A DNA stretch of 39,030 nucleotides from a virus. The position numbers and the translations under genes are program-made. The notes beneath the pieces were generated by a model. It was not told the origin of the DNA and did not search any database. It was given only the letters and a program-made list of their open reading frames with translations. Location: the UHGV virus genome UHGV-1520160; one strand, given 5' to 3'. Positions 9,918-33,276 of this stretch are shown here, one piece after another (position 1 is the stretch's first letter; the number at the start of each line of letters is the position of its first letter).

Positions 9918-10285
9918 CAACTATTACCAAAAAGCAACGCGCAGAGCTACGCATGAAGTTTGGCGGTCGCTGTACTTATTGTGGATGCGAACTACCAGAG
10001 AAAGGCTGGCATGCTTACCATGTAAAACCGGTCATTCGTTTTGATGGAAATATGCTTCACCAGGAACGTGACGATATATCAAACATGGTTCCAGCATGCC
10101 ACCCATGCAATCTGCACAAGCATTGCAGTAGCCTGGAAGATTACCGGCGAATTATCGGTGATGGTCGTCGTGAATTCCTTGTGTCCGGGAAAGGCAAAGC
10201 GCTGGTTCGTATGGGATTGGTTGAAATGAAATCTGACCCAGTGGTGTTCTGGTTCGAAAAATATCAAGAAGGAGCGTCAGCATGA
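9914..10285 (+). CDS. HNH endonuclease
   Basis: CTYCGC...HAYHVKPV...ACHPCNLHKH: Cys pairs with His-Asn-His spacing typical of HNH nucleases. Confidence 0.65.
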   Translation: MTTITKKQRAELRMKFGGRCTYCGCELPEKGWHAYHVKPVIRFDGNMLHQERDDISNMVPACHPCNLHKHCSSLEDYRRIIGDGRREFLVSGKGKALVRMGLVEMKSDPVVFWFEKYQEGASA

Positions 10286-27415: not shown

Positions 27416-28153
27416 ATGGCCACACCAAACCCGCTGGCACCAACAAAAGGTGCTGGTACCACCCTCTGGGTTTACACCGGAACTGGTGATCCATACGCCA
27501 ATCCGCTTTCAGACGTTGACTGGCTGCGCCTGGCAAAGATTAAAGACCTGCAGCCCGGAGAACTGACAGCTGAATCGGAAGATGACACCTACATCGATGA
27601 TGAGAATGCCGACTGGACATCAACGATGCAGGGGCAGAAATCAGCCGGTGAAACAAACCTGACGCTCGCATGGATGCCGGAGGATTCCGGTCAGCAGGAC
27701 CTGGTGAACTGGTTCGATGAAGGCACCGTGAAGGGGTATAAAATCAAATATCCGAATGGTGTTGTCGATGTCTTTAAGGGCTGGGTGAGCAGTCTCGGCA
27801 AGACCATCTCGTCTAAAGAGGTCATGACCCGCACGGCAAAAATCACCAACAATGGCAAACCATCGCTGGCCGAAGACAGTGGTACCGCGCCGATTGCCGT
27901 TACGGGGATCAGCCTGGATAAATCCACGGCGGCTGTGGCTGTCGCGGCCACGAAGCAACTGGTTGTTTCTGTCCTGCCAGCAAGTGCTTCAGATAAGTCT
28001 TTCCGCGTAGCCAGTTCTGATCCGTCAAAAGCAACGGTCACCGTCAGCGGCAATACCCTGACTGTTACCGGCGTGGCGGCAGGCACCGTCGAGATCATCG
28101 TAATGAGCAATGACGGTAACTTTGTGGCGATCTGCAAAGTCACTGTTTCCTGA
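27416..28153 (+). CDS. V: major tail protein V
   Basis: 245 aa; [39 protein letters not shown] matches recalled lambda V. Confidence 0.9.
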
Positions 28154-28189
28154 TAACCGGGGCGAAAGCCCCGTTCCCCCGGAGTAATT

Positions 28190-28941
28190 ATGTTTCTAAA
28201 GAGCGAGCTGCTTGAAAGTAACGGCAGCAGCGTCACATTGTTCCAGCTGTCGGCGCTGCAGCGTATTGAATACCTCGAATACCTGAAACAACTTGAGGCG
28301 GTTGAAGCTGGTGATTTTCAGGCTGCCATTACCCTTACCGTGAAGAGTGGAGCATATCTGGTGGCAATGTCACTCTGGCATGGCCACGCGCTTAAAGGAT
28401 CGCAGGGAGAAAACGCGGCGGCGGAAGTGGAGCAGATTCAGGATGAGGTCATGCAGACATGGCCGACCGAACTTGTTGCCGAAGCCGAATATAAGGTGAA
28501 ACTCCTGTCCGGGATGATTGCGCCGGTCACTGATGACCAGGCTGAGCCCGGTGAAGAACGTAATGAACCCGCTGAACCTGTTACTGCGGAAAAGCCCTCG
28601 CCAGTGAGCTGAAGTTTGCCATGAAACTGGCGCGTGAGTTCGGTCGCCCGGACTGGCGTGCCATGCTTGCTGGCATGTCCTCAACGGAATACGGCGACTG
28701 GAAAATCTTCTACCAGGACAATTACTTTCATGATGCGCAGCTGGACGCACATTTCTCCGGCTTGCTCTACACCATCTCAACCCTGTTTTTTGCCGATCCG
28801 GAGTTAACCCCGGACAGTTTCAGCATTCTTTCCTCTGCACCGGAAGCCATCGACATCGATGATCCGGATGACGATACGCTGATGGCGAAGGCTGCAGGTA
28901 TTTCAGGAGGCGTGCGCTATGGCCCAGACGGCAGTCGGTGA
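28190..28941 (+). CDS. G: tail assembly chaperones G (28190..28612) and GT fusion via programmed -1 frameshift (T segment open from about 28576 to 28941)
   Basis: G: MFLK.E...NG..VTL.ELSALQRIE.L...K; -1 frame continues ...KFAMKLAREFGRPDWRAMLAGMSSTEY.DW matching recalled lambda gpGT. Candidate slip site gcG GAA AAG cc at 28588..28594. Confidence 0.85.
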
Positions 28942-31435
28942 TCTGGTCGTTAACCTTGACGTTAACTCGACAAAATTCAACGAGCAGCTCAGCTACGTCA
29001 AAAAAGAATTAAAACAGACCGGCAATACGGCAAACGATGAAGCGTTACGTATCCAGCAGTCCTTCAGCCGCCAGGAGAACGCCGCGCGTAAGGCCGGTAT
29101 TTCAGTGGGTCAGTATAACGCAGCGATGCGTATGCTCCCGGCGCAGTTTACTGACGTGGCCACGCAGCTGGCGGGTGGGCAGAACCCCTGGCTGATTCTG
29201 CTTCAGCAGGGCGGTCAGGTTAAGGACTCCTTTGGCGGGATCATTCCGACATTCCGGGCGTTGCTGGGGACGATTTCCCCGTTGATGGTCGGCATTGGTG
29301 CATTGTCCGTTGCAACGGGCGCGTTGTTCTATGCCTGGTACCAGGGCTCTTCCACTCTGTCTGATTTCAACAAAACGCTGGTACTGTCGGGGAACACAGC
29401 CGGACTGACAGCTGACCGCATGCTGGCACTGGCGCGGAACGGACAGGCAGCGGGGCTAACGTTCAACCAGACCAGTGAAGCCCTGACCGAGCTTATCAAT
29501 GCAGGTGTGCGTACTGGCTCGCGCTTTGATGAAATGAGCCAGGCGGTGGCGCGGTTTACTGATGCCTCCGGCGTGCCGGTGGAGAAAGTCGCTGCAGCCT
29601 ACGGCAAGCTCGCAACTGACCCGACATCGGGCCTGATCGCGATGGCCCAGCAGTTCCATAACGTTACCGCAGAACAGATTGCCCATGTGGCGCAGCTGCA
29701 GCGTGCCGGTGATGAGGCTGGCGCACTGCAGGCGGCTAACGAGGCGGCTACAGCCGGATTCAACGATCAGACCAAAGCCATCCGCGACAATATGGGGACG
29801 ATAGAGTCTTCAGCGGACTCCCTGAAGCGCGCCTTCAAGTCGATGTGGGATGCAGCCCTCGATATTGGCCGACCTGACACCGCGCAGGAGATGGTGGCAA
29901 AAGCCGAAGCCGCGTTCAAAAAAGCTGATGAAATCTGGAACCTGCGTAAAGGTGACCGATATGTCAATGATGAGGCTCGCGCCCGATTCTGGAATGACCG
30001 CGAAACGGCCAGGCTTGCGCTGGATATGGCGCAGCAGCAGGCGGGAATTGCCAGGGCGAACGAAGAGAATGCATCGCGCGAAGCGGCTGCGGAATCGGAT
30101 CGCCAGAAGTATGCTGCGCAGGCACAGGCAAACTATGCCAAAACGCAGACGGCACTGGAGAAATACACGGCCAGGCAGAGCGAGCTCAACAAGGCGCTGA
30201 AAGAGGGGCGGATCCTCCAGGCTGACTACAACATCAACCTGGCTGCCGCGAAAAAAGAGTACGAAGACACCCTTAAAAAGCCGAAGAAGACCCCGGCAAT
30301 CAGAACCCCCGCAGGTGCCCGTGCCACCGATACGGCCAGTGCCCAGACGCTGGAGCTACAGACACAGCTGCGCACCCTGCAGGAGCATAAGAGCATCAAT
30401 GACACCATCAGCCAGCAGCGTCAGGAGCTGTGGCGTCAGCAGTCCCGCTTTACGGTTCTGGAAGAGGCCGCGAAGACCCGAACGCTTTCTGCTGAGGAAA
30501 AATCCCTGCTGGCCAGTAAAAGTGAGGTGCTTTCCCGTGCGGAGCTGAATGCGAAGCTCGGCGATCAGATAGTGGCGCAGGAGCGGCTTAATCGCCTGCA
30601 GGATACGTCCCAAAAATACGTCACGCAGATCGGCGAGAAAACCCGAGCCCTTGCGGAAAGTGCTGGTATGAGCAGTCGTGCAGCACAACGTCGCAATGAA
30701 GAGGCCCAGCTTCTTCAGGGCTGGAAAAATGGTGGTGGTTCGGAGAACGATGCTGGTTATCAGAATGAGCTGCAGGCGCTGCAGGCGTATTACGCCGAGC
30801 AGGATAAGCTGCGGGACGACTGGCAGTCCGGAGCCAAATCCGCATGGGCAGATTATGTTGATTCTGCTTCAGATGCTTATGGCCAGATAAAGTCGGCTGC
30901 CACCAGTGCGTTTGATGGCATCGGGCAAAATATGGCTGACATGCTGACGCGCGGAAAGGCTGACTGGGCTGACTTCACCCGCTCCACGCTCTCCATGCTG
31001 ACACAGATCCTGCTGAAACAGGCGATGGTAGGCCTGGTGGATTCAGCGACAACCGCGCTGGGATTTGCAGGTGGCGGTTATACCGGTTCAGGCGGGAAAT
31101 ATGAACCTGCAGGTGTCGTTCACCGTGGTGAATTTGTTTTCACCAAAGAGGCTACCAGCCGGATCGGCGTCGGCAATCTTTACCGGATGATGAAAGGGTA
31201 TGCCACGGGTGGGTATGTCGGGGGCGGTGGTACAGGCCCGGCTGCAGCACCTTTCGGTGTCAGTGTATATGCCCCGGTGACGGTCGAGAATGCTTCCGGT
31301 AACGCACAGCAGCAAAACGACGGAGACAGGCTGGGTAAGGCGTATCAGCAGGTGATTAACAAATCTGTCAACGATGGTATCGCCAGGGCAATCCAGCCCG
31401 GTGGGCTTATCTGGAATGCGACCAATCGCAGGTAA
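28919..31435 (+). CDS. H: tail tape measure protein H
   Basis: 838 aa; GISVGQYNAAMRMLPAQFTDVATQLAGGQNPWLILLQQGGQVKDSFGG and C-terminal KYEPAGVVHRGEFVFTKEATSRIGVGNLYRMMKGYATGGYVG match recalled lambda H. Confidence 0.9.
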   Translation: MAQTAVGDLVVNLDVNSTKFNEQLSYVKKELKQTGNTANDEALRIQQSFSRQENAARKAGISVGQYNAAMRMLPAQFTDVATQLAGGQNPWLILLQQGGQVKDSFGGIIPTFRALLGTISPLMVGIGALSVATGALFYAWYQGSSTLSDFNKTLVLSGNTAGLTADRMLALARNGQAAGLTFNQTSEALTELINAGVRTGSRFDEMSQAVARFTDASGVPVEKVAAAYGKLATDPTSGLIAMAQQFHNVTAEQIAHVAQLQRAGDEAGALQAANEAATAGFNDQTKAIRDNMGTIESSADSLKRAFKSMWDAALDIGRPDTAQEMVAKAEAAFKKADEIWNLRKGDRYVNDEARARFWNDRETARLALDMAQQQAGIARANEENASREAAAESDRQKYAAQAQANYAKTQTALEKYTARQSELNKALKEGRILQADYNINLAAAKKEYEDTLKKPKKTPAIRTPAGARATDTASAQTLELQTQLRTLQEHKSINDTISQQRQELWRQQSRFTVLEEAAKTRTLSAEEKSLLASKSEVLSRAELNAKLGDQIVAQERLNRLQDTSQKYVTQIGEKTRALAESAGMSSRAAQRRNEEAQLLQGWKNGGGSENDAGYQNELQALQAYYAEQDKLRDDWQSGAKSAWADYVDSASDAYGQIKSAATSAFDGIGQNMADMLTRGKADWADFTRSTLSMLTQILLKQAMVGLVDSATTALGFAGGGYTGSGGKYEPAGVVHRGEFVFTKEATSRIGVGNLYRMMKGYATGGYVGGGGTGPAAAPFGVSVYAPVTVENASGNAQQQNDGDRLGKAYQQVINKSVNDGIARAIQPGGLIWNATNRR

Positions 31436-31788: not shown

Positions 31789-32540
31789 GTCTTAATGCTG
31801 ATTATCAAAAACTCGAGCCGGGCAATGAAGTCCGGCTTTTTTCTGTCGATGGCACAGCGTTCGGTATGTCAGATGTACTCCGCTTCCACGCACATAATAT
31901 CGCGCATACCCCGGAAGAGATTGAGGCTGCAGGCGGGGATGAGAATAAACTTCCGGCGAAGTCCATCTGGTGGCAGGGGGAGGAGTATAAAGCCTGGCCG
32001 TGTCAGGTTGAGGGTATTGAAGCGACTACGGACGGTACCAGTCCACAGCCAAAACTGAGTGTGGCGAACCTGGACAGCTCGATCTCAGCGCTCTGTCTGG
32101 CGTATGACGATCTGCTGCAGGCGAAAGTGAGTATCCACGACACGCTGGCACAGTATCTGGACGCCAGAAATTTTCCGCAGGGCAATCCCACTGCAGACCC
32201 GTCACAGGAAAAGCTGAAGGTCTTTTATATCGATGCCAGAAGCACCGAGACGGATGAATCTGTTGAATTTACGCTTTCCAGTCCGATGGATTTACAGGGC
32301 CAGATGATACCCACGCGGCAGCTGCATTCGTTATGCAGCTGGTGCATCCGGAACAAGTACCGGACCGGCGACGGCTGCGACTATGCCGGAACGCGCTATT
32401 TCGACAAAAACAATAATCCGGTTGACGATCCATCGCTGGATGTCTGCAACGGCACGCTGACGGCCTGCAAGCTCCGGCACGGAGACAGCAACGAGCTGCC
32501 GTTTGGCGGTTTCCCCGGTACATCTCTTATCAGGAGCTGA
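31785..32540 (+). CDS. L: minor tail protein L
   Basis: 251 aa; position and Cys-rich C-terminus (CSWCIRNKYRTGDGCDYAG...CNGTLTACKLRHG) as in lambda L. Confidence 0.8.
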   Translation: MSLNADYQKLEPGNEVRLFSVDGTAFGMSDVLRFHAHNIAHTPEEIEAAGGDENKLPAKSIWWQGEEYKAWPCQVEGIEATTDGTSPQPKLSVANLDSSISALCLAYDDLLQAKVSIHDTLAQYLDARNFPQGNPTADPSQEKLKVFYIDARSTETDESVEFTLSSPMDLQGQMIPTRQLHSLCSWCIRNKYRTGDGCDYAGTRYFDKNNNPVDDPSLDVCNGTLTACKLRHGDSNELPFGGFPGTSLIRS

Positions 32541-32541
32541 T

Positions 32542-33276
32542 ATGCGCCAGAAAACCATTGATGCCATCATGGCACACGCTGCAGCGGAATATCCGCGAGA
32601 GTGCTGCGGCGTGGTGGCACAGAAAAGCCGGGTTGAGCGCTATTTTCCCTGTCGTAATCTCGCAGCAGAGCCGACTGAACATTTTCACCTGTCCCCCGAA
32701 GATTACGCAGCGGCAGAAGACTGGGGGACGGTGGTGGCCATTGTTCACAGCCATCCTGATGCGACGACGCAGGCCAGCGAGCTGGATAAGGCGCAGTGTG
32801 ATGCAACGCTGCTGCCCTGGCATATTGTGAGCTGGCCAGAGGGGGATTTACGTACCATTCAGCCACGCGGGGAGCTGCCATTGCTGGAGCGTCCGTTCGT
32901 GCTTGGCCACTTCGATTGCTGGGGTCTGGTAATGAGCTATTTCCGGCAGACCCACTGTATCGAGCTCCATGATTACCGCGTCGATTATCCCTGGTGGGAG
33001 AACAGCTATCCGGACAACTTCTATCAGGACTGCTGGTACGAGTGCGGATTCAGGGAGTTTGACGGCCCGCCTCAGGAAGGCGATCTGGTCATCATGCAGG
33101 TGCAGGCCGATAAGTGGAATCATGCCGGGATTTTACTGGAGGGTAACATGCTGCTGCACCATCTTTACGGGCATCTGAGTCAGCGTGTTCCTTATGGCGG
33201 ATACTGGCAGGAGCGCACGATGAAAATCGTTCGCTATAAAGATTTAAGGGGGAATGAATCATGCAGGAAGTCATGA
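32542..33276 (+). CDS. K: tail assembly protein K (JAB/MPN plus NlpC/P60-like)
   Basis: ORF trimmed to the ATG at 32542 (CAGGAG RBS); HSHPD metal-binding motif of JAB/MPN and downstream Cys/His peptidase-like region, as lambda K. Confidence 0.8.
   Translation: MRQKTIDAIMAHAAAEYPRECCGVVAQKSRVERYFPCRNLAAEPTEHFHLSPEDYAAAEDWGTVVAIVHSHPDATTQASELDKAQCDATLLPWHIVSWPEGDLRTIQPRGELPLLERPFVLGHFDCWGLVMSYFRQTHCIELHDYRVDYPWWENSYPDNFYQDCWYECGFREFDGPPQEGDLVIMQVQADKWNHAGILLEGNMLLHHLYGHLSQRVPYGGYWQERTMKIVRYKDLRGNESCRKS

Follow-up and report, generated by a model that had tools for sequence, protein, structure and literature searches.

The heptanucleotide G GAA AAG at positions 28588..28594 of the viral genome UHGV-1520160 (39,030 nt, one strand, hereafter the window) is very probably a functional programmed -1 ribosomal frameshift site. 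It belongs to the tail-assembly-chaperone gene pair of a lambda-like phage and has the form typical of N15. The assignment is based on the identities of the genes, the geometry of their reading frames, identity with the annotated site of N15 and conservation at the nucleotide level. The site is an ordinary, known one of the N15 type, since N15 carries the same annotated site and several lambda-like lineages usually have this form.

The genes of the window follow the order V-G-T-H, with G and T as overlapping open reading frames between the tube and tape measure genes. The remaining morphogenesis genes of lambda type are intact as well (terminase, portal, capsid E, Z, U, M, L, K and J). The features of the junction are the following:

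27416..28153, + strand, major tail tube gene of the lambda V / N15 gp13 type with a C-terminal Ig-like domain (Pfam Phage_TTP_12, 3.1e-69; Big_2, 3e-21)
28190..28612, + strand, gene G, tail assembly chaperone (open reading frame list; Pfam Phage_TAC_2, PF06894, lambda gpG, 6.5e-52 over residues 1-126)
28573..28575, + strand, TGA in the -1 (T) frame, upstream limit for a productive -1 shift (direct reading and three-frame translation)
28576..28612, + strand, G/T overlap of 37 nt in which both frames are open (frame translation)
28588..28594, + strand, probable slip site G GAA AAG, with P-site codon GAA (tRNA-Glu) and A-site codon AAG (tRNA-Lys), read as GGA AAA in the -1 frame
28594..28941, + strand, T-frame segment that would be read after the slip (constructed and translated; Pfam Phage_tail_T, 1.7e-12)
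28595..28700, + strand, predicted structured RNA, candidate stimulator (minimum free energy -46.8 kcal/mol over 106 nt, z -3.7 against dinucleotide shuffles)
28919..31435, + strand, tape measure gene of the lambda H / N15 gp16 type (Pfam TMP_2, 3.2e-72; Tape_meas_lam_C, 1.8e-23)

The tube gene, whose N15 homologue is annotated as major tail protein, precedes G, and on the other side lies the tape measure gene, the start of which overlaps the end of T. In the zero frame, G encodes a product of 140 aa that ends in ...PVTAEKPSPVS before the stop TGA at 28610-12. The -1 frame opens at 28576 because of the TGA at 28573-75 and stays open up to its stop at 28939-41; this T frame (28576..28941) carries the Phage_tail_T match (PF06223, 1.7e-12). 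The fusion of both frames, join(28190..28594, 28594..28941), amounts to 250 aa, with ...PVTAEK followed at the junction by ALASELKFAMKLAREFGRPDW. By tblastn, the G-T region of the window matches the G-T regions of lambda, phi80 and N15.

Within the overlap, the zero-frame codons over the slip site are GCG GAA AAG. The heptamer lies 15 nt ahead of the G stop, at the position homologous to G GGA AAG of lambda, which reads GCG GGA AAG there. A scan of the 37-nt overlap detected no canonical X XXY YYZ heptamer, and G GAA AAG was its single NNN-AAAG site. An earlier note on this DNA had already described the opening of the -1 frame at 28576, the 37-nt overlap, the heptamer as its sole slippery-like sequence and the lambda counterpart, and on all these points our reading agrees. 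As a mere 7-mer, GGAAAAG is not enriched in the window (8 occurrences against 5.9 expected). Its significance lies in its phase, position and conservation.

Two further observations concern the surroundings of the junction. Between the tube gene and G, a GC-rich hairpin (CGGGGC-GAAA-GCCCCG, 28158..28173) has an N15 homologue annotated as 'putative rho-independent transcription terminator'; in the window it is followed by GTTCCCCC and not by a T run. This hairpin might lower the transcription of G, T and H relative to that of the abundant tube protein. Further downstream, a lambda-K-like tail protein with JAB/MPN and NlpC/P60 domains (32503..33276) uses a TTG start that overlaps the end of the L-like gene; such a protein is ordinary for lambda-like tails.

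The closest phages, by DNA identity, are mEp237 (98%), N15 (93%) and HK225 (92%), and all three share GCG GAA AAG with the window. No difference is seen between the window, N15 and mEp237 through GCCCTCGCCAGTGAGCTGA, while HK225 has TCC for CCC after AAG. Genes 14 and 15 of N15 (AF064539 / NC_001901) show the same gene order as the window, 93% DNA identity over G-T (93% also for gene G against gene 14) and an identical junction, GCGGAAAAGCCCTCGCCAGTGAGCTGA. In the alignment, both sequences are identical from GTTACTGCG through GAGCTGA, with the same heptamer, phase and flanks, and outside the junction they differ by scattered substitutions only. The two elements also differ in that the window is an E. 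coli chromosomal prophage and N15 a linear-plasmid prophage. The region of the window is 100% identical to prophages of E. coli ECCRA-119 and YZMc10-2 and is present in 31 of 5426 complete E. coli genomes.

The N15 record AF064539 marks GGAAAAG (misc_feature 10027..10033) as 'slippery sequence for -1 translational frameshift' and describes gene 15 as 'downstream half of translational frameshift product'. The exact site has therefore been publicly recognised since the annotation of the N15 genome. The discovery value of the site is accordingly small, as it is annotated in N15 and its near-canonical NNA_AAG class is covered in reviews.

The distribution of the heptamer among relatives was surveyed with GenBank phages, one Trabulsiella prophage and three IMG/VR scans, whose seeds were GT proteins of N15-like, Gifsy-2-like and lambda-like type. 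Each IMG/VR scan contributed the best 80 loci nearest its seed, and with all sources taken together 245 loci were usable. A scan of genome contigs with a single GT protein returned one locus, the Trabulsiella prophage, so that the survey rests on IMG/VR and the GenBank phages. Because the scans took the best 80 loci per seed, the following counts describe lineages and not population frequencies:

G GAA AAG, 163 of the 245 loci listed, in N15-like, phi80-like and Gifsy-2/mEp460/cdtI-like lineages
G GGA AAG, 78 of the 245 loci listed, in the lambda-/Stx2-like lineage
A GAA AAG, 1 of the 245 loci listed, L040
G GGA AAA, 1 of the 245 loci listed, L073
A AAA AAG, 1 of the 245 loci listed, VT1-Sakai
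C CCA AAA, 1 of the 245 loci listed, a Vibrio phage

In-phase G GAA AAG is encountered in phi80, Gifsy-2, mEp460 and the Trabulsiella prophage, and thus down to about 36-37% protein identity to the window, the value of the Gifsy-2/mEp460/cdtI-like lineage. The earlier note was right that the heptamer is non-canonical, as it does not follow X XXY YYZ; this is however no peculiarity of the prophage, but the standard, annotated form of whole lineages. Two IMG/VR junctions depart from their own lineage: L073 (1008-1014), which is phi80-like, has the canonical G GGA AAA, and L040 (999-1005), which is N15-like, has A GAA AAG preceded by the codon GCA. These variants show that changes between the two heptamer types are possible inside a lineage. 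Two lambda-like sequences were left out of the heptamer counts, L014/L173 (2695420576_000005) and L029/L174 (3300003862_000001). Their G frames end early (124 and 99 codons) and their -1 open reading frames are short, which suggests indels or sequencing errors.

The heptamer of the window lies one G-to-A change away from the lambda site, and the GAA form is much less slippery in vitro (PMC6924986). It could thus be viewed as a lambda site that decayed from GGA to GAA in a defective prophage, with GT falling below a useful level. We consider such decay very improbable. The same form is found at 163 loci and in the viable, plaque-forming phages N15, phi80, HK225, mEp237 and mEp460, the window has kept its T frame and entire tail module intact, and the heptamer is under purifying selection.

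This selection was evaluated on 73 distinct junctions of the GAA-AAG type, where parsimony changes were counted on a tree obtained by neighbour joining of the 104 columns downstream. For comparison we took the nearest three upstream third positions of the zero frame, which are translated in one frame only. Their entropies reach 1.63, 1.53 and 1.29 bits, against 0.10, 0 and 0.10 bits for the third positions of the heptamer (1, 4 and 7). The minimum numbers of changes on the tree are 15, 11 and 13 for the upstream positions and 1, 0 and 1 for those of the heptamer. The heptamer is under strong nucleotide-level purifying selection, with all seven bases conserved.

The frame boundaries of relatives restrict the place of the shift still further. 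Among loci with G GAA AAG, the latest opening of the -1 frame is situated 3 nt before the heptamer (L092) and the earliest G stop 3 nt after it (86 loci), so that a shift at the homologous place must lie in the heptamer or within 3 nt on either side of it. Phages of the mEp460 lineage have an overlap of only 25 nt, without any further slip candidate. The comparative data, namely the 163 of 245 loci, the frame boundaries and the N15 annotation, support the proposal of the earlier note that the G-T frameshift is retained and uses G GAA AAG.

Automated annotation presents the junction differently. In RefSeq E. coli records, in mEp237 and in HK225, T is drawn as a separate gene of 106 aa starting from the ATG at 28621 and unjoined to G. 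Taken literally, these records would mean that no frameshift takes place and that a 'tail assembly protein T' is made alone from this ATG, a reading that the ATG itself and the separate coding sequences listed there appear to favour. The codon at this position is however CTG in lambda, phi80, VT1-Sakai and many other relatives, and no evident ribosome-binding site precedes ATG 28621 (GAGCTGAAGTTTGCC). Two family-invariant T-frame residues, E140 and F143, are moreover encoded between the heptamer and this ATG, the first of the T frame, and no stop interrupts the -1 frame from T back through the heptamer in any of the 245 loci listed. In lambda, T-frame expression reportedly depends on frameshifting that yields gpGT, according to Levin et al. 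in 1993, which also counts against independent translation. Independent translation of T is thus highly unlikely. With E140 and F143 lying upstream of ATG 28621, the T frame must be reached by frameshifting, and since in addition the ATG is not conserved, the stand-alone 'protein T' is a truncated GT. The finding therefore has some value for annotation: pipelines draw a stand-alone T from 28621, the true product being join(28190..28594, 28594..28941).

The site contains a short homopolymer, AAAA, on which RNA polymerase could in principle slip and so give rise to GT at the level of transcription. Transcriptional slippage needs runs of about 8-9 A's or more (reviewed in PMC5009743), far beyond the four A's present. 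The conserved flanking G G and final G fit codon-anticodon re-pairing and not run length, and of all the explanations considered for GT this one appears the least credible, to the point of being negligible.

With ribosomal frameshifting as the preferred reading, the following course of events can be proposed. Most ribosomes would read G to its stop at 28610-12 and release gpG. A minority would slip back by one base on 28588..28594, with peptidyl-tRNA-Glu on GAA and tRNA-Lys on AAG. The tRNA-Lys, the single one of E. coli, would move from AAG to AAA with perfect re-pairing. The tRNA-Glu (anticodon 5'-UUC-3', with mnm5s2U34) would re-pair on GGA through G:C, G·U and A:U. Reading would then go on with GCC CTC GCC... 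and produce the 250-aa gpGT, which, by analogy with lambda, would link the tape measure protein to the tube protein. Both tRNAs thus probably slip in tandem, the middle G·U pair being tolerated. They may be assisted by structured RNA downstream, and the efficiency would probably be a few per cent at most. Neither this efficiency nor the G:GT ratio, which according to the earlier note may be changed by the GAA codon, is derivable from sequence.

Compared with the X XXY YYZ rule, positions 1-3 of the heptamer are G G A instead of three identical bases, leaving the middle G·U after the shift; positions 4-6 are identical, and in A AAG the tRNA-Lys goes from AAG to AAA. The heptamer also belongs to the NNA_AAG / A_AAG class, as it reads GAA AAG in the G frame and the codon before AAG ends in A. 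NNA_AAG sites are a described class, in which 'G_GA' sites are considered intermediates between hexamer and heptamer (Atkins 2016, PMC5009743). The same G:U pairing of tRNA-Glu on GGA is argued for in the PRFect paper (PMC10885494). The modification mnm5s2U34 is carried by both tRNA-Glu and tRNA-Lys, and its loss raises lambda GT frameshifting (Maynard 2012, PMC3296357).

The main alternative accepts the same site and touches the mechanism only in a detail. Only the tRNA-Lys on A_AAG would re-pair, either on a hexanucleotide or tetramer or by a P-site slip of tRNA-Lys with an empty A site, and the preceding G GA would have no pairing role beyond giving the A of GAA. Several data speak for such single-tRNA slippage. 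Among tetramers, A_AAG is the most prone to shift in E. coli; on its own it supports -1 shifting, which reached 5.6% when a strong pseudoknot was present (Sharma 2014, PMC4066793), and NNA_AAG sites such as CGA_AAG are naturally used (PMC5009743). Peng et al. 2019 treat G GAA AAG as a case where 'one tRNA can slip' (PMC6924986), and one natural variant, L040, has A GAA AAG. Against it stands position 1 of the heptamer, which is G in 72 of the 73 distinct junctions, with 1 parsimony change where the upstream positions have 11-15. This G is kept through four preceding codons, GCG, CCG, CTG and GTG (Ala, Pro, Leu and Val; once GCA), and slippage of the tRNA-Lys alone offers no reason for it. Codon preference could partly explain the conservation of position 1, as GCG, CCG and CTG are common E. 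coli codons. We regard single-tRNA slippage as unlikely, while granting it a genuine minority chance.

A G at position 1 kept despite amino acid changes rather suggests that tRNA-Glu re-pairs on GGA in the P site, in other words a tandem slip. The earlier note had held that only the A-site tRNA-Lys can re-pair cleanly. The P-site mismatch upon moving from GAA to GGA is correct and matches Peng et al. 2019 (PMC6924986), but slippage in the A site alone is probably wrong: the mismatch is a middle G·U and position 1 G is strongly conserved, so that P-site re-pairing probably still contributes.

In a reconstituted E. coli system without stimulators, AUG GAA AAG gave mainly the zero-frame product and AUG GGA AAG shifted readily; the former was described as 'unfavorable for slippage' and 'less slippery' than the latter in vitro (Peng et al. 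2019, PMC6924986). In vivo, A_AAG without stimulator remains near background, at about 0.15% (Sharma 2014, PMC4066793), and for this reason the bare heptamer may be weak. A poorly slippery comparison sequence of ribosome kinetics is the natural, conserved slip site of many phages. These phages offer a ready test of P-site G·U re-pairing and of the role of mRNA context in low-level frameshifting.

Among other known systems, G/G-T of lambda has proteins homologous to those of the window (about 53% identical over GT). As in the window, the pair lies between V and H, AAG is the A-site codon, the G stop follows at a distance of 15 nt and the junction ELxFxxxLAREFGRPDW is conserved. The two differ at heptamer position 3, which is A in the window and G in lambda. 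The P-site codon of the window is for this reason GAA (Glu) and not GGA (Gly), and its re-pairing needs the middle G·U. The T part is also shorter in the window than in lambda, with 121 against 159 codons in the -1 frame. The lambda G-T frameshift at G GGA AAG amounts to about 4%. The dnaX site of E. coli, A AAA AAG, has in common with the window the shifty tRNA-Lys on AAG in the A site. It has a canonical heptamer, with a defined SD ahead of it and a hairpin behind, and reaches ~50% shifting, whereas the window has no upstream SD and its downstream structure is a candidate only.

The resemblance to NNA_AAG / Z_ZZN sites, such as B. subtilis cdd, CGA_AAG of IS1222 and A_AAG in IS elements, lies in the shift of the A-site tRNA-Lys from AAG to AAA and in the codon before it, which ends in A without a full XXX run. 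Positions 1-2 of the window (G G) differ in that they still give the P-site tRNA two of three good pairs. The heptamer is in this sense a hexamer/heptamer intermediate, like the 'G_GA' sites of Atkins 2016 (PMC5009743).

The surroundings of the slip site were inspected for stimulators on both sides. Upstream, no SD-like element was detected in the window within 30 nt by anti-SD complementarity. Downstream, the fold predicted for 28595..28700 consists of a long-range helix, 28600-28609 with 28665-28674, which begins 5 nt after the heptamer and encloses two hairpins (28613-17/28624-28 and 28629-43/28648-62). Over ten representatives, the mean sliding z-scores are -2.0, -2.8 and -2.4 for segments starting from 30 nt before to 30 nt after the end of the heptamer, and near zero elsewhere along G and T. 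Under a null of permuted synonymous codons, which keeps the protein, every one of the ten representatives exceeds the expected stability (z -0.2 to -3.0) and five of them reach p<0.05; the value for the window is modest (z -1.85, p 0.04). Homologous stretches of about 100 nt 3' of the slip site are structured in most lineages (28595..28700 in the window, and L004-L010, L042 and L085).

The predicted folds nevertheless differ between lineages. With RNAalifold, the 91 distinct junctions gave no family-wide consensus fold (4 trivial pairs, -1.6 kcal/mol), and in Rfam no family matches the region, the best E values of 0.37 and 0.94 being far below gathering scores. Placed on the alignment, the fold of the window has 80% paired cells and a few compensatory changes (31:99, for instance, as A:U, G:C or C:G). 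Covariation on this larger fold was judged unconvincing, as the compensatory changes follow the division into three clades and half of the sequences lack one central pair. A local hairpin of 7-8 bp right after the site, CGCCAGT/ACTGGCG, was rejected as a specific stimulator (-12.1 kcal/mol, z -0.84 against shuffles, absent from lambda). In downstream structuredness, phages with G GAA AAG do not differ clearly from those with G GGA AAG.

Given the lack of a consensus fold, the thin covariation that follows clades and the folds that differ between lineages, a downstream RNA stimulator is held to be possible but unproven. A broader proposal would be that lambda-like G-T sites, including those with G GAA AAG, depend on a lineage-varying structured RNA just 3' of the heptamer, which could set the G:GT ratio; based on predicted folds, we regard it as speculative and rather improbable. 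In N15-type phages, such a 3' structured RNA might compensate for the poorer P-site re-pairing. No description of a structured 3' element at lambda-like G-T sites was found in the literature searched, key primary papers lying outside this search.

The Gifsy-2/mEp460 lineage presents a different arrangement. Its G stop occurs one codon after the heptamer, and a GAGG(A) SD-like motif (-5.8 to -7.1 kcal/mol) lies ~9-10 nt upstream of G GAA AAG, at about 560-566 in mEp460 (L009) and about 571-576 in Gifsy-2 (L008). The N15-like lineage is devoid of this motif, whose spacing in Gifsy-2 and mEp460 resembles that of the dnaX stimulator.
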